From a virus (lineage: Duplodnaviria > Heunggongvirae > Uroviricota > Caudoviricetes), in the IMG/VR virus record IMGVR_UViG_2606217174_000013, positions 1 to 14,225 of that record: a stretch of DNA of 14,225 nt. One strand, written 5' to 3'. Under the pieces are notes generated by a model. It saw nothing but the letters and a program-made list of their open reading frames with translations, ran no database searches and was not told the DNA's origin. The translations under genes were made by a program, and so were the position numbers. Shown here one piece after another: positions 1 to 14,225 of this stretch (positions within the stretch are counted from its first letter, which is position 1; every line of letters begins with the position of its first letter).

Positions 1-258
1 ATGCAAACCGTTATTTTTGGTCGTTCGGGTTGCCCTTACTGTGTGCGTGCAAAAGATCTGGCTGAGAAATTGAGCAATGAACGCGATGATTTTCAGTATC
101 AGTATGTAGATATTCGTGCGGAAGGGATCACTAAAGAAGATCTACAACAAAAGGCAGGTAAACCCGTAGAAACCGTGCCGCAGATTTTTGTCGATCAGCA
201 ACATATCGGCGGCTATACCGATTTTGCTGCATGGGTGAAAGAAAATCTGGACGCCTGA
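1..258 (+). CDS. grxA: glutaredoxin 1
   Basis: 85-aa ORF starting at window base 1, CPYC redox motif near N-terminus, sequence matches enterobacterial GrxA as I recall it; TGA stop at 256-258. Promoter lies outside the window. Confidence 0.92.
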   Translation: MQTVIFGRSGCPYCVRAKDLAEKLSNERDDFQYQYVDIRAEGITKEDLQQKAGKPVETVPQIFVDQQHIGGYTDFAAWVKENLDA

Positions 259-267
259 TCGTCTGAC

Positions 268-300
268 AAGCCCTCGCGTTGAGGGCTTTACTGATTTTTT
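268..300 (+). terminator. putative Rho-independent terminator downstream of grxA
   Basis: 8-bp perfect stem AAGCCCTC (268-275) / GAGGGCTT (281-288) with 5-nt loop, followed by a U-rich tract ending TTTTTT (295-300). The ybjM stop codon (288-290, minus strand) overlaps the stem. Confidence 0.5.
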
Positions 301-665
301 CTGTGCTGTGGTTTAAACAAACTACTGATAAATAAGAAACACAGTGCCCCCAGCGCACACCAGAACACCGCGCTTAGTAACCATGCCAGCTCTTGCCAGA
401 ATGAGCGCGTCGGTGAAAAAAACAGCCGCATAATGAGCATCGAACAGGGTGCCGCCAGCATTGCGCCAAACAGAGGTTTCAGGACTTCTCTACGCTGTGA
501 AAAGAAGCTGGCGACTGCTCCAGGAAGAATGAAAAATAGCAAGCCGATTTCAGGATGCCCGGCAGCCCGAAAAGCGCCTTTCATGTGCGTCGCCAGAAAA
601 AGGCACACCACAATGAAGAGGACAAAACAGCAGATTGCCCCCGCCCAACGTTGTTTATGTTTCAC
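288..665 (-). CDS. ybjM: small inner-membrane protein YbjM
   Basis: 125-aa strongly hydrophobic ORF, convergent with grxA and divergent from ybjL, as in the E. coli ybjL-ybjM-grxA neighbourhood; size and sequence fit YbjM as recalled. Confidence 0.8.
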   Translation of the reverse strand: MKHKQRWAGAICCFVLFIVVCLFLATHMKGAFRAAGHPEIGLLFFILPGAVASFFSQRREVLKPLFGAMLAAPCSMLIMRLFFSPTRSFWQELAWLLSAVFWCALGALCFLFISSLFKPQHRKNQ

Positions 666-934
666 TCGTTCCTCCTGACACTGCGTCTATCGAACACATT
701 TTTCGCCAGTGTGGCGTTCAGTAAGATAAAGCCGCTTCGCATTCCATGCTAATATAGGCCAACGCAATTCATATAGCCGTTGATACCTAATGTGATTACA
801 CTAGTAAAATATATTGTTACTTTACTATCGTTTAGGTGCGCTGAATGAATCTGCGCCCTGAATTCTGGTAAAAAACATTATCGTAAATTACCATTTCTTT
901 CAACAGCTTACTAGTAAACAAGAAGTTAGCCTCC

Positions 935-2620
935 GTGAATATAAACGTCGCCGAATTGTTAAATGGGAATTACATTCTGTTATTATTTGTGGTCCTCGCG
1001 CTTGGGCTATGTCTCGGAAAGTTACGACTTGGTTCGATCCAACTGGGTAATTCCATTGGCGTTTTAGTCGTATCGCTGTTATTAGGCCAACAACATTTCA
1101 GCATTAACACCGATGCGCTTAATCTTGGCTTTATGCTGTTTATTTTCTGCGTCGGGGTCGAAGCCGGACCGAACTTTTTTTCCATTTTTTTTCGCGATGG
1201 GAAAAATTACCTAATGTTAGCACTGGTGATGGTTGGCAGTGCGCTGGTGATCGCCTTAGGGTTAGGTAAGCTGTTTGGCTGGGATATTGGCCTGACGGCC
1301 GGTATGTTAGCAGGCTCTATGACGTCGACACCGGTTCTGGTCGGTGCTGGCGATACACTGCGTCATTCCGGCATGGAAAGCAGGCAGCTCTCACTGGCAC
1401 TGGATAATCTGAGCCTCGGGTATGCCTTAACCTATTTAATCGGTCTGGTGAGTTTGATTGTTGGTGCGCGTTACTTGCCGAAATTGCAGCATCAGGACTT
1501 ACAGACCAGCGCCCAGCAAATCGCCCGCGAACGTGGCCTGGACACTGATGCCAACCGTAAGGTTTATTTACCGGTGATCCGCGCCTATCGCGTCGGCCCG
1601 GAACTGGTGGCCTGGACCGACGGCAAAAATCTGCGTGAACTGGGTATTTATCGACAAACCGGCTGCTACATTGAACGTATTCGACGTAACGGGATTCTGG
1701 CAAATCCAGACGGTGATGCCGTGCTACAAATGGGCGATGAAATAGCGTTGGTAGGCTATCCCGACGCCCATGCCCGACTCGATCCCAGCTTCCGTAACGG
1801 TAAAGAAGTTTTCGATCGTGACCTTCTCGACATGCGTATCGTCACTGAAGAAGTGGTCGTTAAAAACCATAACGCTGTAGGTAAACGTCTCGCACAACTG
1901 AAGTTGACCGATCACGGTTGCTTCCTTAACCGCGTCATTCGTAGCCAGATTGAGATGCCGATAGATGACAACGTCGTGCTTAACAAAGGTGACGTTTTAC
2001 AAGTCAGCGGCGATGCCCGCCGCGTAAAAACCATCGCCGATCGCATCGGCTTTATCTCGATTCACAGCCAGGTCACTGACCTGCTGGCATTCTGCGCCTT
2101 CTTTGTTATTGGGCTGATGATCGGGATGATCACCTTCCAGTTCAGCACATTCAGTTTCGGCATGGGGAACGCTGCCGGGTTGTTATTCGCCGGAATTATG
2201 CTGGGCTTTATGCGTGCTAACCACCCGACCTTCGGTTACATTCCGCAGGGTGCATTAAGCATGGTGAAAGAGTTCGGCTTGATGGTGTTTATGGCAGGCG
2301 TTGGTCTGAGCGCCGGTAGCGGTATTAATAACGGCCTGGGCGCGATTGGCGGTCAGATGTTGATTGCCGGATTGATTGTCAGTCTGGTGCCCGTGGTTAT
2401 CTGTTTCTTGTTCGGTGCTTATGTATTGCGAATGAACCGCGCGCTGTTGTTCGGCGCAATGATGGGCGCACGTACCTGCGCGCCGGCAATGGAGATCATC
2501 AGTGATACAGCTCGCAGTAACATCCCGGCGCTGGGCTATGCGGGCACCTATGCAATCGCCAACGTCCTGCTGACGCTGGCAGGGACAATCATCGTCATGG
2601 TATGGCCAGGATTAGGATAA
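935..2620 (+). CDS. ybjL: putative transporter YbjL (AAE family; two membrane domains flanking paired cytoplasmic RCK/TrkA-C-like domains)
   Basis: 561-aa ORF with GTG start at 935, N-terminus [13 protein letters not shown]; hydrophobic N- and C-terminal blocks around a hydrophilic central region; matches enterobacterial YbjL as recalled. Confidence 0.92.
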
Positions 2621-2732
2621 AACTGAAGTTGCCCTGAAAATGAAATTTTTTTGCACAACCGCAGAACTTTTCCGCAGGGCATCAGTCTTAATTAGTGCCA
2701 CTGCTTTTCTTTGATGTCCCCATTTTGTGGAG

Positions 2733-2776
2733 CCCATCAACCCCGCCATTTCGGTTCAAGGTTGATGGGTTTTTTG
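2733..2776 (+). terminator. putative Rho-independent terminator downstream of ybjL, inside the interval that must contain the prophage junction
   Basis: 10-bp perfect inverted repeat CCCATCAACC (2733-2742) / GGTTGATGGG (2760-2769), 17-nt loop, then TTTTTTG (2770-2776). Confidence 0.5.
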
Positions 2777-2855
2777 TTGCCTGAAATTTAAGCTGTTTAA
2801 AATCATGATGTTAGAAGCACTGTTTTTTAACGATGGCGACAAAATGGCGGCAGCG

Positions 2856-3074
2856 TCAAAGAGAGAGCGCCACCTGTCCTGATTTCATTGGATGCGGCTG
2901 AACCGGATTTGACTCTTTTGGCGTTGCAATCGAACGAACAAAAGTTTCATGGGTAACAAAAGTATGGCTGCAGTTAATGTTCTGGCACTGGTTGTAACGC
3001 TCTTTGGTCAATGAAGATACCTGAAAACTGCTGCGAGTATGGGCGGCACTTCCACACAGTGGGCAAATCATCAT
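2856..3074 (-). CDS. ogr: Ogr/Delta-family zinc-finger late transcription activator
   Basis: 72-aa product from the internal ATG at 3074 (MMICPLCGS...), with GGGGAGA Shine-Dalgarno 9 nt upstream; Cys-x2-Cys...Cys-x4-Cys pattern (CPLC ... CQNINC) and KERYNQCQN motif typical of P2 Ogr; position immediately after D as in P2. The ORF-track start at 3107 is probably too far upstream. Confidence 0.85.
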   Translation of the reverse strand: MMICPLCGSAAHTRSSFQVSSLTKERYNQCQNINCSHTFVTHETFVRSIATPKESNPVQPHPMKSGQVALSL

Positions 3075-3164
3075 TTTTCGAGTTCTCCCCATTTTTGCTA
3101 AATTCACAATAATGATACCGCATTATTCCATTTTGCAAACTTAAAAGTTCTCCATTGCGAAGAA

Positions 3165-4265
3165 TCATTCCATTTCGAAATCATCAATCCTCACTTCAAG
3201 CTCCAGACTGGTCGTAAAACCATTATCCGGGCTTACGGTATGCGTCAGAGTCGTAATGGTCCATTCCGCATCATCTATCGGCTGTTTAAAGCCACTGACT
3301 TTCACTGGCATTTCCGTGTAGAGATCTGCCCGCCCTTCCGCCAGTTGTAGCGAGAATGACGCAACGCCACGTTGCAGGCGTTCCCACTGCATTTTCGCTG
3401 CCCGTTCAGCGTTGCTCCGGTTGGCATAAGTGCGATTAAGTACCAGCACGTTTTCATCCGTCCCCACCAGGTAATCGCCCTGCTTCGCTTCCGGCTCTTT
3501 CTTCTGCTTCTTAGTCCTGCGCTTACGCTTCACCGTAGTGCTTTCTTTCTTCGCGGGTTCGCGGGTATGCAACCAGCTGGCAATTACCCCCGTGTAAGCT
3601 CCGCGATCTGCCAGGGTAAAGCGGTGACTGTCGCCGTCCTTACGTGTGATAGTGATCACCGGTAGTGGTTTACCGCTGGCGCTTTTACCCTGTCCCTGTC
3701 GGATGAATAACAGATTGCCATTTTTCACCGACGCAATAGCACCGTACTGGCGCGCCAACCGCATCAGAAAACTGCCGTCACTCTCATTGGTCTGGTCTAT
3801 ATGTTCCACGGGTTTATCTGACAGGTCTTTACCCAATGCCATCTTCAGTTTGTGCCGCGCAGCTATTTCCTTCACCACTTCCCCAACGGTGGTCTTGTGC
3901 CACGACTTTTCACGGCGGGTATTCAGCGTTTCACGAAAATCAGCACTTCGCGCCCGGATAGTCAGGCGATCCGGTGCGCCAGTGTGTTCAATCTCGTCCA
4001 CCGTGAATGCCCCTTTCGGGAAAAGCGGCTGCCCCTTCCAGCCCAGCGCCAGCGTAATAACCGCACCACGACGCGGCAGCACGATTTTTCCATCGGCGTC
4101 GTCCAGTTCCAGATCAAGCTGGTCTGCTTCAAAGCCCCGGTTATCCGTCAGCGTCAGACTCATCAGGCGGTTGTCCAGCACTGTGGTGATATCCTTGCCT
4201 TCAATACTGATGCTGAATGCCGGAGTTTTGTTGCCTTTGTTAAGCAGTTCAGAGCTGAAATTCAC
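3165..4265 (-). CDS. D: tail protein D (P2 gpD / late control D family)
   Basis: 366-aa ORF; N-terminal region resembles P2 gpD; start overlaps U stop; last tail gene before ogr as in P2. Confidence 0.88.
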   Translation of the reverse strand: MNFSSELLNKGNKTPAFSISIEGKDITTVLDNRLMSLTLTDNRGFEADQLDLELDDADGKIVLPRRGAVITLALGWKGQPLFPKGAFTVDEIEHTGAPDRLTIRARSADFRETLNTRREKSWHKTTVGEVVKEIAARHKLKMALGKDLSDKPVEHIDQTNESDGSFLMRLARQYGAIASVKNGNLLFIRQGQGKSASGKPLPVITITRKDGDSHRFTLADRGAYTGVIASWLHTREPAKKESTTVKRKRRTKKQKKEPEAKQGDYLVGTDENVLVLNRTYANRSNAERAAKMQWERLQRGVASFSLQLAEGRADLYTEMPVKVSGFKQPIDDAEWTITTLTHTVSPDNGFTTSLELEVRIDDFEME

Positions 4266-4747
4266 GACAGCAGCCCTCCCACCGTTTTACTGATATCGCT
4301 TAATGCAGACGTTGCCGTGTCCTGCAGATTATTCAGCTGCGCACTGAGATCACCGAACATATCGGACAGGGATTCATCCACCCGTTTGAGCGACAGGGTG
4401 AACTCAATCCGGCGCGGCATACCATCGCGGAAAAACTCCGTTTTAGTCTGATTCAGTCCCTCAATCACATACATGCCATAAATCGTGCCGCTGCCTTCAA
4501 TCAGGGGCCATGCTTTCCCCTGTTCTGCCATCTGCTCCAGTGCCAGCAACGACAGCCTGCCGCCTGTTATCTCCGGCATAAGAACACCAGAAAGCGTCAG
4601 CATGTCGTTGTCCGGTCCCAGAAACTGCGTGGACGGACGACGATTTACCCGACTGTTTGCCGCATATCGCCAGCTGCGTTGATACTGCAGCTCCTGATAC
4701 GGTACGGTGCGCAGCATAAACACGTACAATCCCAGCACCATCATCAT
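4262..4747 (-). CDS. U: tail protein U (P2 gpU family)
   Basis: 161-aa ORF between T and D, both junctions with overlapping ATGA start/stop; size and position match P2 gpU. Confidence 0.85.
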   Translation of the reverse strand: MMMVLGLYVFMLRTVPYQELQYQRSWRYAANSRVNRRPSTQFLGPDNDMLTLSGVLMPEITGGRLSLLALEQMAEQGKAWPLIEGSGTIYGMYVIEGLNQTKTEFFRDGMPRRIEFTLSLKRVDESLSDMFGDLSAQLNNLQDTATSALSDISKTVGGLLS

Positions 4748-7700
4748 GCGTCGTATCCCCCCTGATCGCTGTAGTTACTCCTGGCCTTTGCCTTCAGTCT
4801 GCGTTCACGTTCATCAAGCTGGCGTGCCACCTCCCGCGCAATATCCTGCGCACTTTGTCCTGGCTGCGTCTGGATGATGATCTGCGTCGGTGCCTCAATC
4901 CGGTGAACGGGCGGCACAGCAGCTGCGCGACTCACCATCGCTTCGCCGCCTTTCGCGGGAAGTGCCAAAGGGTGCAACGGTGGAAGCTCTGCTGGTGCGG
5001 CAGCAACACCCATCATTCCGACAACAACCGCAGCCAGTGCAGCTGTATTTCTCCGGCTGGTCACGTTTGCCGGACCGTTAACAATTTCAGGCCCGTTTTC
5101 ACCGACAATGCCGAACTGCCCGCGCGGGATATAGCCGCCGCTGTCATACATCCCCGCAAAGCCATATCCCCATGATGGAAAACCACCCGATGGCATCATC
5201 ACTTTACCGTCTGCATTCACCGTCGCAGGTTGCTGACGCGTCACGCTTTCCGGCAGTTTCGCCTTTGCAGCTTCTTTACTGACAATGCCGAGTTTATCCA
5301 GCAACCAGGAAACACCGGATTTCAGGGAGTCCAGCGGATGCATGACCATATTCAGCCCCTCCGCCAGAGCCTCCCCGAATCGTCGCCCCATTGCCGCTGC
5401 ACTCTGCAGTTCGGCAGAGGTCGACTTAACAGGCATCAGCAGGTCAGTAAACCAGCCCCACAGCGCCTGCACTTTGTCTCCAATCCACTGGAACACAGGC
5501 TTAAGTGGTTCGAATGCGGCACTGATGGGACCAGCCGCTGCTTTGAATCCTTCCACCACGCCACCGAGAAATGCGGTGATGGGTTGCCAGTATTTCCAGA
5601 CAACCAGCGCCACGCCTGCCAGTGCAGTAACCACAAGACCTATCGGACTGAGCAGAGCACCTAACAGACCAGATATGGCATACAGGGCCACGCGCAGCAT
5701 CGCCAGCGGACCGGATGCCAGCACACGAAGCACCGCGCCTGTGGCAGTCAGCCCGCCGCGTAGTGCTGCCAGAGGATTCATAAACATCACAGCAACAGCA
5801 CGTAAACCGGATAATCCAGACCGCAATAGTGCAACCGGCGCACCTGCTACAGTTTTCAGGACATTCCCCGTCAGTGATGCCGTGCGACGCAAAGACGACA
5901 ACGGCGCAGTAAGTAAACCCGCTGCGTTGCCCGATGAAGCAAGCCCGCGTCGCAGCAGTGCCAGTGGTGCGCCAGCCAGCCAGGACAACGCGCTGCTGGT
6001 TCGAGTTACTGCTGCCGTAACGGAAGGTAACGTTTTGATACCCAGCACAGAGAATCCCAGACGGATCACTGCCAGCGGCCCCAGCACTGCAGCCAGCGCC
6101 ACCGCTAAGGTGCCGAGGCCTACGGTAACCGCAGCCACAACAGCCGCTACTTTCATCAGTGTGCCTGTCAGTTCCGGGTTAGCTTCCACCCAGCGGCGCG
6201 ACGCTCCCGTGACGCTTTTCACCATGTACAGAATATCCATCAGCGGCTGGCGCAGCGTTTCGCCCAGGCTGCTGAAGGTGTTCTGCGCTCCGGTTTTGAC
6301 CAGCAACCACTGCGCAGAAAGTGAGTCCTTGTTAATGTCGGATTCTTTCTGCATGGAGCCGAGCGCATCATTGCCCGCTGTCAGCTTTAACTGGCGCTGC
6401 AGTTCCGGCAGGTTGTTTGCCAGTTTCGCTGCGTCATCGCCAAACTCTTTACCAAACAACATGGTCATGGCAGACAGGCGCTTATCCTGCGGCAGAGCAT
6501 TCACCTTCTCCAGCACGCGCTGGATGGTTCCCATCGCATCCTTCGTCATCTGCTTTTCAATCAATTCAGGATTGAGTTTCAGCAGATTCATCCCTTCAAA
6601 GAAACTCTTGCTTTGCATGGTGGCAATGGACAATTCACGCACCATCGCGTTTGCTGCACTGGCTGCAACCTCCGGCGCAGCGCCCAGTGTCAGGAAGGTG
6701 GAACCCAGCGCCGCCGCTTTACGGTAATCCAGACGATCAGCCACACCGCCCAGGCGTTGCATGACATCAATGATGTCTGCCCCTTTCGACATGGCGTTAT
6801 CATCCAGATAGTTCAGCGCATCACCGAGCTGTTCAATATTGCGGGTAGGGATTTTGTAGAGCTGGGCGATTTTCCCCAGACTTTCTGACAGTTCATCCGC
6901 TGGCAGCTCAAAGGCTGTTGCCGCCTTTGCCGCCGTGCTGGCGAAGGCCAGCAGGTCACGTTTCTGGTCTTCCCAGCTGTCGTCAGGGTTTGCGACGTTC
7001 ATGCGCGCCCCACCTTCAACCAGTGCGGCGAAGTCCACAGCACCGTTTTCCATCGGCAACTGTTCGCTGGCAGCCTTGATGGCATCCTGCATTTCATAAA
7101 AACGCGCAGTGCGGTTGCCATTATCGTCACGCAGACCATTGACCTGCTTTGCCACACCTTTCATGGCATCTTCCATGCTGGTATAGCTTTTTACTGCCGC
7201 CATCACTGGTGCGCCCATTACCAGCCCTGCAGCCGTGGTGGTGGCTCCGGCTCCTGCGATACGATCGCGCACTTCAAGCCGTCTTGAGTATTGTTCTCTG
7301 GCAGCGTTCATCCGTGCCTGTTGTTCACCCAGACGTTTAAGTGCTTTTTGCTGGCCCTCCAGTGCCTGCCTTGTTTCTTCAGCATTTTTCTTAAGTTCTC
7401 GCTGGGCACTACTGAGTTGCCTGGTATCAATCCCTGATTCTTTAAGGGCCTGACGTTGTCTCTGGACCGCCCCCAACAAGCCGTTATAGGTCTGCTGAAG
7501 TTCCTGTACTCGTGTTTTGGCCTGACTGAATAACTTTGCCTGCGCGGCGGTTGGCCTGTTAGTGGCAGCAAATTGTGTGGCGAGTTTTGCCGCCTCTTCG
7601 CGGGCTGCGTTCAGGTTGTTGGCTGTTATGGCTAGTTGCGAGCGCGTCTTGCGAAACTCATCAATTCTGCCAGCCTGCTTATTCAGTTCTTTGAGGCTGT

Positions 7701-7821
7701 TTCTGGTATTCTGAATTGCGCCAGCCAGCTCTTTCGAACTGGCCTGTGCAGCACGGAATGGGCGGGTGAGTTTGTCAACCGCATTAAGAATGACCTGCAG
7801 GCGCAGGTTATTATCACTCAT
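4744..7821 (-). CDS. T: tail tape measure protein (P2 gpT family)
   Basis: 1025-aa ORF directly downstream of the E/E' chaperone pair; Q/A/R/E/K-rich helical N-terminal third, central Ala/Leu/Gly-rich hydrophobic block with a periodic motif, Gly-rich C-terminal part. This architecture and position are typical of tape measure proteins. Confidence 0.9.
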   Translation of the reverse strand: MSDNNLRLQVILNAVDKLTRPFRAAQASSKELAGAIQNTRNSLKELNKQAGRIDEFRKTRSQLAITANNLNAAREEAAKLATQFAATNRPTAAQAKLFSQAKTRVQELQQTYNGLLGAVQRQRQALKESGIDTRQLSSAQRELKKNAEETRQALEGQQKALKRLGEQQARMNAAREQYSRRLEVRDRIAGAGATTTAAGLVMGAPVMAAVKSYTSMEDAMKGVAKQVNGLRDDNGNRTARFYEMQDAIKAASEQLPMENGAVDFAALVEGGARMNVANPDDSWEDQKRDLLAFASTAAKAATAFELPADELSESLGKIAQLYKIPTRNIEQLGDALNYLDDNAMSKGADIIDVMQRLGGVADRLDYRKAAALGSTFLTLGAAPEVAASAANAMVRELSIATMQSKSFFEGMNLLKLNPELIEKQMTKDAMGTIQRVLEKVNALPQDKRLSAMTMLFGKEFGDDAAKLANNLPELQRQLKLTAGNDALGSMQKESDINKDSLSAQWLLVKTGAQNTFSSLGETLRQPLMDILYMVKSVTGASRRWVEANPELTGTLMKVAAVVAAVTVGLGTLAVALAAVLGPLAVIRLGFSVLGIKTLPSVTAAVTRTSSALSWLAGAPLALLRRGLASSGNAAGLLTAPLSSLRRTASLTGNVLKTVAGAPVALLRSGLSGLRAVAVMFMNPLAALRGGLTATGAVLRVLASGPLAMLRVALYAISGLLGALLSPIGLVVTALAGVALVVWKYWQPITAFLGGVVEGFKAAAGPISAAFEPLKPVFQWIGDKVQALWGWFTDLLMPVKSTSAELQSAAAMGRRFGEALAEGLNMVMHPLDSLKSGVSWLLDKLGIVSKEAAKAKLPESVTRQQPATVNADGKVMMPSGGFPSWGYGFAGMYDSGGYIPRGQFGIVGENGPEIVNGPANVTSRRNTAALAAVVVGMMGVAAAPAELPPLHPLALPAKGGEAMVSRAAAVPPVHRIEAPTQIIIQTQPGQSAQDIAREVARQLDERERRLKAKARSNYSDQGGYDA

Positions 7822-8250
7822 CGTTGGCCCCGCTTCTCTGAATCGCTTTATACCGCCATTCCAGCACTTCGGTCAGCGGCATAACGTCAGTAACGGATGG
7901 CGGCCAGTGAAAGATGGTGGCGATATCAGCCACCAGATCGTCAACCGTCAGGCTGTCGGTAAACCGGCAAGCACCGACTTCTTCAACAAAAAAGTGACAA
8001 CCTCAACCGACATGGCAGTGAGATCTGCCGGGTCCATCTCTGCAATTTCCTGTGCAGTCAGTGCCGGACTGGAGATGCGGGGGATCACGGTCATCATCGC
8101 GTTCACATCCATATCCATAATGGCCTGCAGGCGTGTGCCGCGCAGCGCACCAGACTGAGGTTTACGCAGCACAATTTCGGTAATTTCTGTTTTACCGCGC
8201 TTGATGGGAGTATCCAGTTGAATAGTCTTTTCAGTCTGCTTATCGCTCAT
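7814..8250 (-). CDS. E': tail assembly chaperone E+E' fusion produced by -1 programmed ribosomal frameshift
   Basis: I translated the -1 frame by hand from the slippery site: it stays open for 57 codons (VEEVGACRFTDSLTVDDLVADIATIFHWPPSVTDVMPLTEVLEWRYKAIQRSGANDE) and stops at TGA 7814-7816, overlapping the T start codon (7819-7821). Predicted fusion is about 145 aa. This is the conserved layout of the P2 E/E' and lambda G/GT pair. Confidence 0.65.
7948..8250 (-). CDS. E: tail assembly chaperone E (P2 gpE)
   Basis: 100-aa ORF between FII and T; AGGA Shine-Dalgarno 8 nt upstream of the ATG at 8250; contains the slippery site near its 3' end. Confidence 0.85.
   Translation of the reverse strand: MSDKQTEKTIQLDTPIKRGKTEITEIVLRKPQSGALRGTRLQAIMDMDVNAMMTVIPRISSPALTAQEIAEMDPADLTAMSVEVVTFLLKKSVLAGLPTA
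7987..7993 (-). other. slippery heptamer T_TTT_TTG for the E to E' -1 frameshift
   Basis: Minus-strand sequence GTC ACT TTT TTG TTG AAG in the E frame (VTFLLK); the plus strand shows CAAAAAAG at 7987-7994. Confidence 0.6.
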
Positions 8251-8275
8251 TTTGTTGTCCTGTAAATTGGGTTCT

Positions 8276-8293
8276 GGCGCGGCATTCCGCGCC
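8276..8293 (-). other. intercistronic stem-loop between FII and E
   Basis: Perfect 7-bp stem GGCGCGG / CCGCGCC with a 4-nt loop in the 54-bp FII-E spacer; no following U-tract on the transcribed strand, so not a canonical intrinsic terminator. Confidence 0.4.
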
Positions 8294-8304
8294 GTTCAGA
8301 TACA

Positions 8305-8820
8305 TCAGAGGCCGAGGGCGTTGCGGTGCGCTTCCATCAGGTCCATACCGTCCACAATTTCCACCATATTGATAAGGTCCACTTCATAGAGCACCTCACC
8401 ATTGATGGTCAGCTTCGCGTAGCTGTTGGTACTGGTCACTTTGGTGGTGTTGCTTTCGCCCGTCTTCCACTCGCCGGAATCCACTTCTTTGTGACGTCCA
8501 CGCACCACAAGCTCCACGGCCTGCACTTCTCCGGTATCGTCACGCTGGATAGAGCCGGTAAAGCGCAACTGGATGCCATCCACCGTGGCTTTGCCCATCT
8601 GCTTAAACAGCAGCAGTTCAGTACCACCAATGGAAAATTCTGTGTCCAGCGCACTGTCATCAAGCCCCAGATCCACATCCACTGCACCAGGCATTCCGCC
8701 GCCGCGATACTTCTCATATTTGCGGGTGAATTTCGGCAGCGTCAGCGACTCTACGATCCCCTGCCAGTTGTTCCCGTCGTTAAACAGGTTCAGATGTTTT
8801 AATTTGCGTGGTAAAGCCAT
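8305..8820 (-). CDS. FII: tail tube protein (P2 gpFII)
   Basis: 171-aa ORF immediately downstream of the sheath gene (9-bp spacer containing GGGGA); size and position match P2 FII. Confidence 0.88.
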   Translation of the reverse strand: MALPRKLKHLNLFNDGNNWQGIVESLTLPKFTRKYEKYRGGGMPGAVDVDLGLDDSALDTEFSIGGTELLLFKQMGKATVDGIQLRFTGSIQRDDTGEVQAVELVVRGRHKEVDSGEWKTGESNTTKVTSTNSYAKLTINGEVLYEVDLINMVEIVDGMDLMEAHRNALGL

Positions 8821-8829
8821 GTTGTCCCC

Positions 8830-10002
8830 TTACGCGCTGACCTGGCTGGCGAAATTCACCAGGTACTGATCGGTGATGCGCTGGCGCAGCATCAGATTTT
8901 CAAGTGGCGGCACTGGCGTGTAGTCATAGTCGATAGTGAGTTTTCCGGCTTTCAGCGTGTCTTTGTCGTTCACCGACTCATCCAGCCAGCAATCACCACC
9001 AATGAGATAGCCCTGACTGACCAGGCTGCGCATTTTGGCGCGGATACCTTCGATAATGTCGCGGGCCAGCGACGGGTTAAGCGGTTTATCCACCGCCCAC
9101 ATGTGTGCTTCTGCCATCGTGTCCATCAGCACCTGCGCCGTGCGGGTGTAGTTTTCGAAGGCAAAGAGCGGGTCATCACTCAGGCAGCGGGAACCCCAGA
9201 AGCGGAAACCGTCCTTGCGCACAAGCGTGGTGACGTCGTTCTGGTTCAGCAGACCTGCATCGGTTGCCGGGTCCTGCAGATCCCAGAACACATCTGCAGA
9301 AATTCCGGTGACACCGTTCACGCCCACGTTGGACAGGCTTTTGTGCCACCCGGTCTGCTCATCAATTTTGGCACGCAGACCAAGCGCACGGGCGGTGGCA
9401 TATGCCGTTGCTTCGGCATTCAGCACCGTGTCCCAGCCAGTAAAGTCGGGCCAGATCAGCATTCCTTCGCGCTGGCTGAAGTTTTCACGATAAGTGATCG
9501 CCTCCTGTACCGTCTTGCAGCCATACGCTGACAGGTAAGCAAACCCACGCAGGCTTTGCGCCACGCTCAGCAACTCAGTCGCAACGGCTTTGTTATCGTG
9601 ACCTGGCACGCCGAGAATGCGCGGTTTAACGCCGAGCTGTGACTGGGCAGATAGCAGGGCTTTCATGCCTGTTTTTTTACCTTCAGCAGTCACAGCGCCG
9701 ATGATATTGGTCGTGGTTTCGTCTTCCGTTTCACCCTGCGGCACACGCACAACAACGGTCACGGGTTTTGCCTGATCAGCGATGGCATCCAGCGAACGGG
9801 CCAGAGTACCGGACTCACCCGCTTTACCGCTGGCAGTCAGCACATCAGTGATCAGCACGGGTTTATTAAGAGGAAACATTTTTGCATCGGCATCATCGCC
9901 CGTGCAGACCATACCCACGATGGCGGTGCTCACCGTGGTAATGGATCGGGTGCCTTCGTTGACTTCAACAACGCGCACCCCGTGGTGGTAATCCTGAGCC
10001 AT
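8830..10002 (-). CDS. FI: contractile tail sheath protein (P2 gpFI)
   Basis: 390-aa ORF with strong AGGAGG Shine-Dalgarno upstream of the ATG at 10002; first gene of the FI-FII-E-T-U-D block as in P2. Confidence 0.9.
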
Positions 10003-10078
10003 AGCGGCGAACCTCCTGATTGGATTAGGCTTCGCCCTATGTTGAAGTGATTGTGCCCGACAAACAGCTAAGTGTCGT

Positions 10079-10096
10079 TGTGCCGTTATTCACACA
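10079..10096 (-). promoter_or_regulatory. putative Ogr-dependent late promoter element (TGT-N12-ACA dyad) for the FI operon
   Basis: TGTGCCGTTATTCACACA has the TGT-N12-ACA symmetry characteristic of P2 late promoters; its centre is about 85 bp upstream of the FI start, compatible with a -55 activator site plus a roughly 30-nt leader. Confidence 0.45.
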
Positions 10097-10144
10097 AAAT
10101 GACGGTATTTGTCTACTTGCAGGGATAATCAAAATTATGCTGAT

Positions 10145-10711
10145 TCAGGGGGATTCACTGCTCTTATTTGCCGGAAATTTTCTATAAATGGTAGAAACGC
10201 CCACATCAAAAATCAGTGCAATACGCTGTCTTGATTCTCCGGCCTCGAGTAAACGTCCAATCTGTGCCCACTGTTCGGTGGTCAACTTAGGACGACGTCC
10301 ACCTACTCTGCCTTTGTCGCGAGCTGCAGCAATCCCCGCCCTGGTACGTTCAACTATCAGTTCGCGTTCCATTTCAGCCAGGGCACCCATGACATGAAAA
10401 AAGAAACGGCCCATTGGGGTACTGGTATCAATACTGTCAGTCAGGCTTCGGAAATTCACGCCACGCTGGCGCAACTCTTCTATCAGCGTAACAAGATGCC
10501 GCATACTGCGTCCCAACCTGTCCAGCTTCCAGACAACCAGCGTGTCTCCTGCCGATAGTGTCCTGAGTAGTTTTTTCAGTCCCGGTCTGTCGGACTTAGT
10601 GCCACTGATTTTGTCCTCAAAAATTCGCTCACATCCCGCGCAGTTCAGTGCATTACGTTGCAAATCGGTGTTCTGGTCATTTGTTGACACACGTACATAG
10701 CCAATAAGCAT
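10145..10711 (-). CDS. serine DNA invertase (Hin/Gin/Pin/Cin family site-specific recombinase)
   Basis: N-terminus MLIGYVRVSTNDQ with the catalytic serine in the conserved motif; resolvase-type catalytic domain; C-terminal helix-turn-helix (...VGVSTIYRKF...). Start chosen at the ATG at 10711, which has a GGGGG Shine-Dalgarno 6 nt upstream; the track start at 10717 is too close to it. Confidence 0.9.
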   Translation of the reverse strand: MLIGYVRVSTNDQNTDLQRNALNCAGCERIFEDKISGTKSDRPGLKKLLRTLSAGDTLVVWKLDRLGRSMRHLVTLIEELRQRGVNFRSLTDSIDTSTPMGRFFFHVMGALAEMERELIVERTRAGIAAARDKGRVGGRRPKLTTEQWAQIGRLLEAGESRQRIALIFDVGVSTIYRKFPANKSSESP

Positions 10712-10766
10712 GATCATCCCCCTGAATAAAAACCGGAGATGATGCCAGTTAGCTGTTACCTCTGCA

Positions 10767-10792
10767 TTTTCTTAAACGTTGGTTTGGGAGAA
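10767..10792. repeat. invertase crossover site, left (gix/hix/cix-like 26-bp site)
   Basis: TTTTCTTAAACG TT GGTTTGGGAGAA; the 14 bp at 10779-10792 (TTGGTTTGGGAGAA) are a perfect inverted copy of 12691-12704; half-sites fit the TTxTCxxAAACC pattern of Hin-family sites around a 2-bp core (10779-10780). Confidence 0.7.
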
Positions 10793-11248
10793 ACGATAAA
10801 TAAAGCCTCCGGAGCTATGCAGAAATCGGCTAATGGATCTGATATTTCTGATGTATCAGCCTTCCGAAATGCGCTCCAGTTAGGGACCGCTGCAACACGA
10901 GATGTTGGAGCAGATAATCCCTCGAAGTTACTGGATTTAGACAGCTTCAGGTCAATGATGTCAGGTAATGGCTACATCTACATTCCATGCATTGCGACGA
11001 CAGGAAACCCGGTGAAACTTATGTTGCAGTGGGGAACGGTGGCAACACAAAAGGGAGCTGATGTTGGATATGCCTTACCATTTGCTTTTCCCTATGCAGG
11101 CTTGTTTGCGACCGGAAACCGTGGAACATCTGGCTACAATGCCGCGATGAATGTGCGTATTGCCAGCAGAACGCATATCAGTATTCAGAACTGGTCGCCA
11201 TCCGGAGAGGGCACCGAAGATTGTTGTTTTATCGCGCTGGGGTATTAA
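10781..11248 (+). CDS. silent alternative tail-fibre C-terminal (receptor-binding) cassette; promoterless, expressed only after inversion fuses it to the constant part of H
   Basis: Open frame running in-frame through the crossover site (…VGLGE TINKAS…) to a TAA stop at 11246-11248. The track start at 10739 lies outside the invertible segment and is probably not a real start. About 150 aa, no obvious similarity to the current H C-terminus. Confidence 0.65.
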   Translation, partial: GLGETINKASGAMQKSANGSDISDVSAFRNALQLGTAATRDVGADNPSKLLDLDSFRSMMSGNGYIYIPCIATTGNPVKLMLQWGTVATQKGADVGYALPFAFPYAGLFATGNRGTSGYNAAMNVRIASRTHISIQNWSPSGEGTEDCCFIALGY

Positions 11249-11250
11249 GA

Positions 11251-11667
11251 ATGAATAAATTTTATAAAGGCTCTTTCTATCCGGAAGCACTAAAAGATGT
11301 ATATATCAGCGCCGGTTCATGGCCTGAAAATGGCGCTGATGTTGATGATGAAACAATGGCAATTTACACAGGCGTAGCGCCAGAAGGCAAAACGCTGGGG
11401 GCTGATAAAAATGGTAATCCTGCGTGGATTGATATCCCGCCACTCTCCGCTGAACAACAGATTATTCTGGCTGAACAGAAAAGAACGGTATTGCGTTCTA
11501 TGGCTGATAAGGAAATAGTCTGGAGACAGGATGCTTTTGATGCGGAAATCGCGACGGCAGAAGAAACCGCCGCGTTATCTGAATGGAAAAAATACCGGGT
11601 CTTGCTGATGCGCGTTGATACATCAAATCCCGTCTGGCCTACGCCTCCGGGGGAGCAGGCCAATTGA
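11251..11667 (+). CDS. alternative tail fibre assembly chaperone (Tfa; U'-like)
   Basis: 138-aa product from the ATG at 11251 (MNKFYKGSFYPEA...), 2 nt after the alternative fibre cassette stop; C-terminal ...DTSNPVWPTPPGEQAN resembles the C-terminus of the G product. Confidence 0.8.
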   Translation: MNKFYKGSFYPEALKDVYISAGSWPENGADVDDETMAIYTGVAPEGKTLGADKNGNPAWIDIPPLSAEQQIILAEQKRTVLRSMADKEIVWRQDAFDAEIATAEETAALSEWKKYRVLLMRVDTSNPVWPTPPGEQAN

Positions 11668-12241
11668 TATCCGGCGCGGTGCTGGTATCAGTTGCCGTCA
11701 CCGCGTCAATGTAATCCAGCACAGCGTTAAGTCGGGTGTTTTCTGTCTGCGTCAGCTTCCGCCCGGTCTGCAATTTCAGTTGAATCAGACTAATGGAAGC
11801 CATTGCAGTATCAATCAGTGACTGACGCTGTGCTTCTGCCGCGCCTACTGCGGCACTATGCTGTGCCTCAGTATCTGTCACCCATTTCTCACCATCCCAT
11901 TTATCGTATGGCGTTAACGGTGCGAGAGTGGTTGTATTATCAGGGTAATCACCCGGTGCTGTGATTTCTTTTGATTCTCCTGTTTCGGTGCTAAAGACAA
12001 TTTCACCGCGATGGTCCGGCACATATTCCCATGAATTTAAATCCACAGAGCGGCAAATTGAATAACCATCCTTATGTGTACCAGGAGCCTCTAAACAGGA
12101 ACATGCCGGAATACCAACACCCACAGCAAGATATTCAGATGATTCGGAAATATATTCCCGCGTATCACCATCATAGTTATAAACGATGACGTTTCCCGCC
12201 TGTACGGCAATAAGGTCATTATTTAATATCGCGTTATTCAT
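11639..12241 (-). CDS. G: tail fibre assembly chaperone (P2 gpG / Tfa), currently expressed copy
   Basis: 200-aa ORF whose ATG overlaps the H stop (TAATG); C-terminus ...TDTSTAPDINWPAPPEA; immediately downstream of the fibre gene as in P2. Confidence 0.85.
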   Translation of the reverse strand: MNNAILNNDLIAVQAGNVIVYNYDGDTREYISESSEYLAVGVGIPACSCLEAPGTHKDGYSICRSVDLNSWEYVPDHRGEIVFSTETGESKEITAPGDYPDNTTTLAPLTPYDKWDGEKWVTDTEAQHSAAVGAAEAQRQSLIDTAMASISLIQLKLQTGRKLTQTENTRLNAVLDYIDAVTATDTSTAPDINWPAPPEA

Positions 12242-13752
12242 TATGCAGCTCTCACAATATAATTGAAGGCGATGTTACGTGGGCGGGTTTCATTTCCCCC
12301 TGAAAACTCCGTTCTGTATTGACTGTTAAACCTCCCGTTAATCGCACCTTCCTGCACGGCGTTATCTGTCGACAACAGACTGTCGCCCTGTCTGTCATTT
12401 GGTTCCAGTACTGTATTATTCCACGCGTCCCATGATCGGATATAGTGACAATGACTCCCTGTCAACCATTCCTGTGCGCTTAAGATGGCTCGACCTGTAT
12501 CCACACCGCGCCCGTCATCCCAGCCACGAATAAATTCACCGCGTAAATCAGGTAATTTTCCGCTCGGGTAAGCCTTTGCCAGTTCCGGGTATTCTTCAGC
12601 AGAAAAAGCCGCACCGTTGCATTTCAGCCAGCCTGTCGGAGGTGTGACAGAAGGCCAGGGAACAGGGACACCAACGGGTAATGCTGAGCCTTCTCCCAAA
12701 CCAAGGTATGCGAGAAGACCAGCTACATCCTTTCCACTCAAATTAGTCAGCGTATTGTCCAGCGGTTGTTTACCTGACAGAGCATTCAACATTGTCGTGG
12801 CAAAGTTCGGGTCATTTCCCAGCGCCGCCGCCAGTTCGTTCAGTGTATCCAGTGCAGCAGGTGCAGAACCCACCATTGCCGCAATCGCCGATTTCACAAA
12901 AGCCGTGGTGGCAATCTGTGTATTGTTGACCGACTGTGCCGCCGTGGGGGCTGTCGGCGTCCCGGTAAGTGCAGGACTCGACAGCGGCGCTTTGAGTGCC
13001 AGCGCATCATTAATGGTGGTACTGAATTTCGGGTCATTGTTAATGGCTGCGGCTATTTCTTTCAGTGTGTCCAGCGTGGCTGGCGCACCATTAATAAGAG
13101 CCGTCAGTGCCGCCTGAACAAACGCAGTGGTCGCAACCTGCGTGGTGTTATTGCCTGCCGCAGGTGTTGGCGCTTTTGGTGTCCCGGTAAACGTCGGACT
13201 TTCTTTCTGTGCATATTGTGAATGCGGGTCCGGTGCGGCAAGGTGTTTTGCCAGCTGGTCATCCACGTACACCTTCAGCTCCAGTGCCTTGTCATCCACA
13301 TACTTGCGGGTTGCCAGCACTACGGCAGGGTCGATTTTCAGGGTGATATTGTCCGTGCTGCTGGTAATCAACACCATACGCACGGTCTGGGTGCGCCCGC
13401 TGCCTTCAGCCAGTTGCGGCTTATAGCTTTCCGGGCAGTTGCCCACGGCAATCAATGCCCCTGACTCATCAAACAGGCCCACTTCACGTATCCACCAACC
13501 GCCCTCGTTTTCAGGGATCACCTGTTCAGCAATAATCTGGCTGCTGTTCTGCAGGTCGATATAAAGCATATTCAGCGCAGCCCGGCGTTTCTCATTTACC
13601 AGTGCCGTCTGCTTTGCGTCCGGCGTTGGCAATACTCCGCCGCCATCGCCCACCGCCATATGGGTAATTTTTAGCGGCACACCGAGCGCGGCGGCGCTGG
13701 CAAGTTTCGCCGCGCCAATATCCGTCAGCAGGGTATAAAATTTTGTGCTCAT
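12241..13752 (-). CDS. H: tail fibre protein (P2 gpH family), current orientation
   Basis: 503-aa ORF; N-terminus MSTKF...MAVGDGGG... resembles the conserved P2 H N-terminal domain; two tandem fibre repeats in the middle; C-terminal variable domain begins at the crossover site (codons 350-354, LGLGE). Confidence 0.9.
   Translation of the reverse strand: MSTKFYTLLTDIGAAKLASAAALGVPLKITHMAVGDGGGVLPTPDAKQTALVNEKRRAALNMLYIDLQNSSQIIAEQVIPENEGGWWIREVGLFDESGALIAVGNCPESYKPQLAEGSGRTQTVRMVLITSSTDNITLKIDPAVVLATRKYVDDKALELKVYVDDQLAKHLAAPDPHSQYAQKESPTFTGTPKAPTPAAGNNTTQVATTAFVQAALTALINGAPATLDTLKEIAAAINNDPKFSTTINDALALKAPLSSPALTGTPTAPTAAQSVNNTQIATTAFVKSAIAAMVGSAPAALDTLNELAAALGNDPNFATTMLNALSGKQPLDNTLTNLSGKDVAGLLAYLGLGEGSALPVGVPVPWPSVTPPTGWLKCNGAAFSAEEYPELAKAYPSGKLPDLRGEFIRGWDDGRGVDTGRAILSAQEWLTGSHCHYIRSWDAWNNTVLEPNDRQGDSLLSTDNAVQEGAINGRFNSQYRTEFSGGNETRPRNIAFNYIVRAA
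12691..12716. repeat. invertase crossover site, right (inside H at the constant/variable junction)
   Basis: TTCTCCCAAACC AA GGTATGCGAGAA; the first 14 bp are the exact reverse complement of 10779-10792; the 2-bp core (12703-12704) falls in codon 350 of H. Confidence 0.7.
12757..13200 (-). repeat. two tandem ~222-bp (74-codon) fibre repeats within H
   Basis: H residues 185-258 and 259-332 are two copies of the pattern SP-x-TGTP-x-APT...NNT-Q-ATTAFV...AP-A-LDTL-E-AAA-NDP-F-TT..., visible as two similar DNA blocks. Confidence 0.5.
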
Positions 13753-14225
13753 GGATTCACTCTCATTGTGTCAATAACATGGACCGCCCCGCCTTCATGC
13801 GCGGTGCCACCGGAAATAATCGTTTCGTTGATATACGGATAGATCGTGATTTCTTCGCCAAGATAGCTGGCGGCTCCCACCCAATGCGGGCCGCTGGTCT
13901 GCAGATTGATGGACATGCCGATCATGTGGCGGCTACATGGTTTGGCATCGCTTATCAGTCGCTCAAGTTCCAGATAGGTATCTTCAGTGATGCCCTGGTC
14001 CTGCACGCCGATATCCAGGCGAAACGTGCCCGGTGTTTCTCCGGTCTGCCACCACTCAATAATGCGGATCAGGAATCCGAACGGTTCCACCACCCGCCGC
14101 ACGGCACTGGTGGTTCCTTTATGCTGATGAATATAAAAAGCATCCTTCACTACCTGGCGTTTGACGCTTTCTGTCCAGCCCTCGTCCCAGCGATCCACAG
14201 AGAACGCCCAGGCGAGATAAGGCAG
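13749..14225 (-). CDS. I: baseplate protein I (P2 gpI family), C-terminal part; the 5' end is outside the window
   Basis: The reading frame is open to the window edge: the track start at 14198 is a GTG and codons continue upstream of it. Stop overlaps the H start (ATGA); sits directly upstream of H as in P2. Confidence 0.75.
   Translation of the reverse strand: MPYLAWAFSVDRWDEGWTESVKRQVVKDAFYIHQHKGTTSAVRRVVEPFGFLIRIIEWWQTGETPGTFRLDIGVQDQGITEDTYLELERLISDAKPCSRHMIGMSINLQTSGPHWVGAASYLGEEITIYPYINETIISGGTAHEGGAVHVIDTMRVNP

Follow-up and report, generated by a model that had tools for sequence, protein, structure and literature searches.

A P2-type tail assembly chaperone locus that very probably yields E and E+E' by −1 ribosomal frameshifting in an Escherichia coli prophage

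The window analysed here, a stretch of 14,225 nt (positions 1 to 14,225 of the IMG/VR virus record IMGVR_UViG_2606217174_000013), carries a P2-type late tail operon, FI-FII-E-E'-T-U-D, followed by ogr. From Pfam and from RefSeq, in which an E. coli locus of 97.6% identity is annotated, the order of the genes is tail sheath (8830..10002), tail tube FII (8305..8820, minus strand; PF04985 Phage_tube, E = 3e-59), E, E', tape measure T (4744..7821, minus strand), gpU (4262..4747), gpD (3165..4265), and the Ogr/Delta zinc-finger gene (2856..3107). The tape measure protein, 1025 aa long, is identified by its ORF, by a match to PF10145 (PhageMin_Tail), and by the same RefSeq annotation. Over its whole length the window has matches in E. 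coli chromosomes that reach 97.6% identity, with grxA, ybjM, and ybjL flanking the prophage end. For positions 7700-8400, identity is 97.9% with phage Cartapus and 97-98% with numerous prophage records from Klebsiella and E. coli. The prophage is P2-like, a member of the Peduoviridae of the Elveevirus/Cartapus-like kind, and adjoins ybjL in the E. coli chromosome.

Gene E occupies 7948..8250 on the minus strand, running from the ATG at 8250 to the TGA at 7950-7948, and its zero-frame product is a tail assembly chaperone of 100 aa. Toward its end lies the putative −1 shift site, the slippery heptamer T_TTT_TTG (7987..7993, minus strand) at Phe87-Leu88. The zero frame here reads ACT TTT TTG, with TTT TTG as codons 87-88, so that the heptamer stands in the X_XXY_YYZ phase, as tandem −1 slippage requires; its position and phase bear out what a sequence-only reading of the window had proposed for this site. 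That reading also placed the heptamer 7 codons before the E stop, which is a miscount: past the heptamer the zero frame continues as TTG AAG AAG TCG GTG CTT GCC GGT TTA CCG ACA GCC TGA, that is, for 12 sense codons.

In the −1 frame the E' extension (7814..7987, minus strand) comprises 57 sense codons, from GTT at 7987 (the G at 7987 being read a second time) to GAG at 7817, and closes with a TGA at 7816-7814; it is identified by its translation and by matches to PF06528 and phrog_1756. Translation agrees with the earlier hand-made estimate on both counts, the 57 open codons past the heptamer up to a TGA and the length of about 145 aa for E+E', which is the sum of 88 and 57 aa. The tryptic peptide predicted to span the junction of this fusion is ISSPALTAQEIAEMDPADLTAMSVEVVTFLVEEVGACR, of 38 residues. 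Upstream, the −1 frame is shut by a TGA at 8005-8003 and open from 8002, and the zone in which zero and −1 frames are both open, delimited by the bounding stops, is 7948..8002 (minus strand), a 52-nt overlap. Given this TGA and the E stop at 7950-7948, any shift must fall within 7948..8002. The tape measure ATG lies at 7821-7819, within ATGAGTGA, and the tape measure gene overlaps the end of E' by 8 nt. From the sequence alone, the E' stop had been said to overlap the tape measure start codon; the TGA in fact lies over the second and third codons of the tape measure gene and not over its ATG.

One further site in the window was considered for recoding and rejected. An in-phase G_GGG_GGA at 4762, four codons before the T stop, could have been a second recoding site giving a T-U fusion, but it lies 8-9 nt upstream of the U start and is better read as the ribosome binding site of U. 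P2 and 186, in which T and U are separated by a gap instead of overlapping, also count against T-U recoding.

Both parts of the fusion belong to known families. The Pfam family PF10109 (Phage_TAC_7) matches E with E = 1e-18 and 67.5 bits (cutoff 25), and aa 9-88 of the fusion with E = 2.2e-18. For PF06528 (Phage_P2_GpE) the match covers aa 107-143, a region encoded in the −1 frame only, with E = 2.9e-18 and 65.5 bits (cutoff 23). Among the PHROG families, phrog_103 ("tail") matches E with E = 2e-42, and phrog_1756 matches aa 85-145 of the fusion and so spans the junction. In NCBIfam there was no match for E or for the fusion, and a profile search of PDB sequences gave chance-level matches only (E at least 0.24), with no solved homologue found. 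A single-sequence AlphaFold model has a mean pLDDT of 45 and is too poor for use.

The arrangement is conserved far beyond the close relatives of this prophage. The fusion matched 419 phage records by tblastn, and in 386 of these a single place accounts for 80% or more of the fused query; among the 60 rows listed, each match of this kind is joined from two pieces. The frame relation itself was checked directly in 97 loci, namely 17 annotated and 80 IMG/VR loci, including P2, 186, phiCTX, and Burkholderia, Ralstonia, and Vibrio phages. In all 97, E' occupies the −1 frame with respect to E, and the overlap contains a slippery heptamer in phase; none has the −1 frame shut after the heptamer, the observation that the sequence-only reading had named as damaging to its own proposal. 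Its further claim, that the locus has the conserved layout of chaperone pairs upstream of tape measure genes, is supported. Counting the window itself (n = 98), the heptamers are TTTTTTG in 85 loci, TTTTTTA in seven, TTTTTTT in two, and TTTTTTC, GGGAAAG, AAATTTT, and CCCTTTC in one each, so that 95/98 belong to the T_TTT_TTN class and the other three are G_GGA_AAG, A_AAT_TTT, and C_CCT_TTC.

At the protein level the alignment is unbroken across the junction, and F87, whose codon is the heptamer's TTT, shows no variation. Right after the heptamer the −1 frame encodes the motif V-x-E-x-G ... L-[ST]-V-D-D-L-[MV]-A-D-[IV]-A-x-[IV]-F-H-W-P-P, and the invariant residues of the −1-frame part are A108, D109, F114, R133, A136, and R139. 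The zero-frame tail past the heptamer, on the other hand, varies from 4 to 22 codons among relatives and is poorly conserved. By tblastn the fusion is 48.9% identical to P2 and 43.4% to 186, and phiCTX is also matched; the comparison with the P2 E and E' proteins, which had been suggested as a check, gives 49% identity for the fusion in an alignment that runs across the junction. A joined E+E' CDS is already annotated in the records of KS5, FLC5, and Smp131, and the 186 record words its annotation as "probably produced by a translational frameshift."

Taken alone, the heptamer is unsurprising by chance. TTTTTTG occurs three times in the window against 3.6 copies expected, 11 in-phase X_XXY_YYZ heptamers are found within the window's minus-strand genes, and −1 runs of at least 57 codons are available from 8.6% of the in-phase positions of these genes. 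Both the chance-level frequency of TTTTTTG and the ready supply of long −1 runs would suit a reading in which the −1 ORF is a noncoding frame, open by accident, in the 126-nt spacer between E and T. The significance of the site comes from the combination of its phase, its place in the 52-nt overlap, the Pfam domain in the −1 frame, and conservation. Against an accidental frame stand the PF06528 match (E = 2.9e-18), conservation across phages of Enterobacteria, Pseudomonas, Burkholderia, Ralstonia, Vibrio, and Stenotrophomonas, and the distribution of variable sites, counted in 62 distinct relatives with the same geometry. In the E'-only region, 17, 8, and 30 variable sites fall at −1-frame codon positions 1, 2, and 3; E in its own frame shows the same pattern, with 33, 18, and 75. 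This third-position bias indicates that the −1 extension is real coding sequence under selection. On the evidence of Pfam, tblastn, and site variation, we take an accidental open frame to be already refuted and give it negligible likelihood.

If the −1 frame is coding, its product could also be reached by other routes than a ribosomal shift. The extension might be a separate small gene for which frameshifting is unneeded: a GTG in frame at 7933 is in principle a possible start for a peptide of 39 aa, this ORF (7814..7933, minus strand) is annotated in RefSeq and GenBank as a stand-alone "GpE family phage tail protein," with the CDS present in the records of E. coli A30, phage Cartapus, and p13P477T-2, its 39-aa sequence occurs on about 994 contigs, and Met or Val stands at the corresponding position in many homologues. 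Against this, no Shine-Dalgarno (SD)-like sequence occurs within 25 nt upstream of the GTG (CGACAGCCTGACGGTTGACGATCTG), and the −1-frame conservation (V-x-E-x-G ... L-[ST]-V-D-D-L) reaches the heptamer, 18 codons upstream of that GTG; the phrog_1756 match covers aa 85-145. In RsoM1USA, VHML, and Vibrio 1F53_PE003 the position matching the GTG is taken by Ala, Trp, or Tyr and so offers no start codon. In P2 itself E' has no ribosome binding site and is reported to be made by extending E, an arrangement conserved in P2-like phages (PMC3931495). A separate gene is, on this evidence, highly improbable, and the stand-alone ORF most likely represents no more than the C-terminal part of E+E'. Slippage during transcription deserves the same scrutiny, as the site is a homopolymeric run of six T (seven in Smp131 and Vibrio 1F53_PE003) at which RNA polymerase might add one U, giving a product of nearly the same size as the ribosomal one, with the junction F-F-V in place of F-L-V. 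For the RNA polymerase of E. coli to slip efficiently, however, six T is a short run. The heteropolymeric heptamers G_GGA_AAG (in Mannheimia), A_AAT_TTT, and C_CCT_TTC cannot be explained by polymerase slippage, and the X_XXY_YYZ codon phase, which matters for ribosomal and not for transcriptional slippage, is kept in 98/98 loci. Because the phase of the T run is constant and three heptamers are heteropolymeric, we favor ribosomal over transcriptional slippage and consider the latter very unlikely.

A P2-type programmed −1 ribosomal frameshift, by which a single start codon serves both E and E+E', is, in our judgement, very probably what this locus encodes; homology to P2 argues that such frameshifting occurs in the window's prophage. 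Most ribosomes translating gene E would stop at 7948 and release the 100-aa chaperone E. A minority would slip back by one base with their P- and A-site tRNAs on the UUU-UUG of U_UUU_UUG (7993-7987), and these slipped ribosomes would read 57 more codons in the −1 frame to give the 145-aa E+E'. The two proteins, produced in a fixed ratio from a single start codon, would thus have the N-terminal domain in common, with a C-terminal domain specific to E'. By analogy with the G/GT pair of lambda, the common domain may coat the tape measure protein and the E' domain may recruit the tube protein, with neither chaperone staying in the virion. For P2, the shift reportedly occurs at a frequency of about 10%, and E' is said to be essential; in the window's prophage, we infer the shift frequency and the binding partners of E and E'.

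Two elements near the heptamer were considered as candidate stimulators. The sequence-only reading had suggested a search for a stimulatory RNA structure downstream of 7987, and a hand-picked candidate hairpin, GUCGGUG / UACCGAC, with 7 bp and a 10-nt loop, lies at 7955..7978 (minus strand), 8 nt downstream of the heptamer, pairing 7978-7972 with 7961-7955. It first looked promising because of one apparently compensatory variant: in ST11-VIM1phi8.4, U-A is changed to C-G and G.U to A-U, with pairing kept. Over 31 distinct sequences, 86.6% of the cells are paired and one pair is changed on both sides. Folding of the 94 nt that start at the heptamer does not surpass that of shuffles, however (z = −1.49, with 16/200 shuffles as good), the covariation of the hairpin is 0.125 against 0.110 for shuffles, a value that 69/500 reach, with slid controls not exceeded either, and RNAalifold predicts a structure of −0.45 kcal/mol from which the candidate hairpin is absent. 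Folding, covariation, and RNAalifold thus give no support to a structure downstream of 7987, and the 7-bp hairpin was dropped as a conserved stimulator, which agrees with published work on P2, where no such structure is reported either.

The other element is an SD-like GAGGU (8000..8004, minus strand), a possible stimulator that lies within Glu-Val codons 7 nt upstream of the heptamer. In the window's clade, GAGGT is kept in nearly all of about 26 distinct upstream contexts, one of which has GAGAT, while third positions near the GAG codon vary. Farther away, the site reads AAGGTG in P2 and 186, and the motif is missing in ENT90, VHML, FLC5, and Smp131. Conserved coding for Glu/Lys-Val also explains the motif, which we treat as a lead only. 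It is rather unlikely, to our mind, that in the Elveevirus/Felsduovirus-like clade GAGGU(G) and the hairpin tune the ratio of E to E+E', or else that the 39-aa E' is also made alone from the GTG at 7933; tuning by GAGGU(G) and the hairpin, if true, would introduce cis elements so far undescribed for P2.

The databases present this locus differently. In RefSeq/PGAP and most phage records the gene appears as two, a 100-aa "phage tail assembly protein" and a 39-aa "GpE family phage tail protein." The exact E protein, under the former name, is found on at least 1000 contigs, and the 145-aa fusion, as an exact sequence, is absent from a collection of 15 billion proteins. Its absence from that collection reflects annotation practice and not biology, and the split into E and a 39-aa ORF is probably an annotation artefact. 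The only practical value of the present case is the reminder that automated annotation splits the recoded E/E' gene: the joined sequence is the one to work with in proteomics, structure prediction, or engineering of P2-like tails, tailocins, and phage-derived particles.

Among known recoding systems, dnaX of E. coli (A_AAA_AAG) resembles the locus in having a tandem-slippage heptamer in an E. coli setting, with the SD-like GAGGU upstream and the possible hairpin 8 nt downstream of the heptamer in the window completing the likeness. The differences are clear: the hairpin in the window lacks statistical or covariation support, the SD-like motif stands 7 nt away from the heptamer, against a typical spacing of about 10 nt in dnaX, and shifting would give the longer product in the window but gives the shorter one in dnaX.

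The G/GT pair of lambda resembles the locus in layout, with two overlapping ORFs that lie between the major tail/tube and tape measure genes and have their N-terminus in common. The lambda heptamer is G_GGA_AAG, the same as that carried by the homologue in Mannheimia phiMhaA1, whereas the heptamer of the window is T_TTT_TTG; there is no detectable sequence similarity to G/T, and lambda is a siphovirus, while the window belongs to a phage with a contractile tail. In the lambda model, as the review of this work presents it, the shared part binds the tape measure protein, the T part binds the major tail protein, and both proteins are absent from virions (Levin 1993; Xu, Hendrix & Duda 2004, 2013, 2014; reviewed in PMC5009743). 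The presumed division of labor at the locus would be alike, with the shared part directed to the tape measure and the extension to the tube protein.

The closest known systems include P2, where E (91 aa) and E+E' (142 aa) result from a −1 shift at TTTTTTG (PMC3091744), as was demonstrated experimentally according to the accounts in two later papers (Christie et al. 2002, J Bacteriol 184:6522, via PMC3091744 and PMC3931495). The P2 shift site is conserved in KS5, KS14, and KL3, and a search downstream of it gave no hairpin (PMC3091744). The window has the same T_TTT_TTG heptamer in the same phase, a predicted −1 shift, and a 57-codon E' extension that ends 8 nt inside the tape measure gene (ATGAGTGA in the window, ATGAGTAA in P2); the gene order and both Pfam families are also the same, with 49% aa identity over the whole fusion. 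Differences are found in the lengths, E having 100 aa in the window and 91 aa in P2, and the fusion 145 and 142 aa, in the zero-frame tail past the heptamer, which has 12 codons (LKKSVLAGLPTA) in the window and 6 in P2 and 186, and in the lineage, which is Elveevirus/Felsduovirus-like and not Peduovirus.

Very similar records are those of Cartapus (Elveevirus cartapus, OV696611; CARTA_26/CARTA_27) and of the E. coli plasmid-prophage p13P477T-2, with 97.9-98.4% nucleotide identity over 7700-8400. The local alignment scores of E and E' against both equal the self-scores of the window, so that the aligned parts of the two proteins are identical, and the junction context is identical as well. Their records differ from our reading in annotating E and a separate 39-aa GpE ORF with no joined product, and Cartapus exists as a free phage, while the window comes from a prophage in the chromosome, next to ybjL. 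The E/E+E' shift was shown for P2 in 2002, predictions for P2-like phages have followed since then, and the window adds nothing biologically new to it. We regard the frameshift arrangement as real but ordinary: it is already known, because it is a textbook case and the protein sequence is identical to that of a described phage.

The T run of the slippery heptamer in E, the gene for the tail assembly chaperone, is missing from the E homologues of three loci among the 97 comparators, which carry other in-phase heptamers at the equivalent site: G_GGA_AAG, the heptamer of lambda G/GT, in Mannheimia phage phiMhaA1-BAA410 (L013), A_AAT_TTT in Citrobacter Shae_phiSM (L014), and C_CCT_TTC in Klebsiella Kp4847-1 (L017), the last two with a longer E' of 70–71 codons. 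Judged from these sequences, the recoding is retained in all three although the slippery sequence has been swapped. The exact 145-residue E+E' fusion (window 7814–8250) was not found in a collection of 15 billion proteins, which holds the 100-residue E on about 1000 contigs and the 39-residue “GpE family” fragment likewise on about 1000. The recoded E/E' gene is systematically split in annotations of E. coli, Klebsiella, and Salmonella.

An SD-like GAGGU (8000–8004, minus strand) lies 7 nt 5' of the slippery heptamer. Within the window's clade, its Glu codon is GAG in every one of the approximately 26 distinct upstream contexts, one of which has GAGAT instead of GAGGT, and likewise in the distant relatives KS5 and RsoM1USA; GAA occurs in VHML only, and the third positions next to the GAG codon are variable. 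P2 and 186 have AAGGUG at this location. It is possible that GAGGU acts as a dnaX-like stimulator, although its distance from the heptamer is short and the compared sequences are phylogenetically non-independent.

Another in-phase heptamer, G_GGG_GGA (4756–4762, minus strand), is found four codons ahead of the stop of the tape measure gene T, and the −1 frame from it reads on into gene U. A T–U fusion by a −1 shift is formally possible; the heptamer, however, precedes the U ATG (4747) by 8–9 nt, and a role as the ribosome binding site of U is more likely. The run of seven G is retained at the T–U junction in RE2010. T and U overlap in the window, while P2 and 186 have a gap of 12–14 nt between them.

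Elsewhere, window 10145–13752 appears, from its gene and repeat arrangement, to be an invertible element of the Mu G/P1 C/Hin type that carries tail-fibre genes. Two 26-nt inverted-repeat arms (10767–10792 and 12691–12716; TTCTCCCAAACCAAGGTATGCGAGAA, 81% complementary), presumably hix/gix-like, bound a stretch of about 1.9 kb, adjoined by a serine recombinase gene (10145..10717, minus strand; PF00239 and HTH_7). Inside are an alternative fibre C-terminus (10739..11248, plus strand; Gp53-like_C) together with a pair of tail-fibre assembly genes in opposite orientation (11221..11667, plus strand; 11639..12241, minus strand), and the fibre gene (12241..13752) contains one of the arms. At the prophage end, window 1–2856, adjoin the host genes grxA (1..258), ybjM (288..665, minus strand), and ybjL (935..2620); the attachment-site junction presumably falls inside the 236-nt spacer ahead of the ogr-like gene (2621–2855), where the remaining two TTTTTTG copies of the window (2647, 2770) are also located.

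Finally, a GC-rich hairpin, GGCGCGG-AAUG-CCGCGCC (8276–8293, minus strand), without a U run 3' of it, sits between the stop of the tail tube gene FII (8305) and the E start (8250), and may leave E, T, U, and D less strongly expressed than sheath and tube. In phage 186, a “tI partial terminator of pJ transcript” is annotated in the same place, in the gap that separates the tube gene from the homologue of E.
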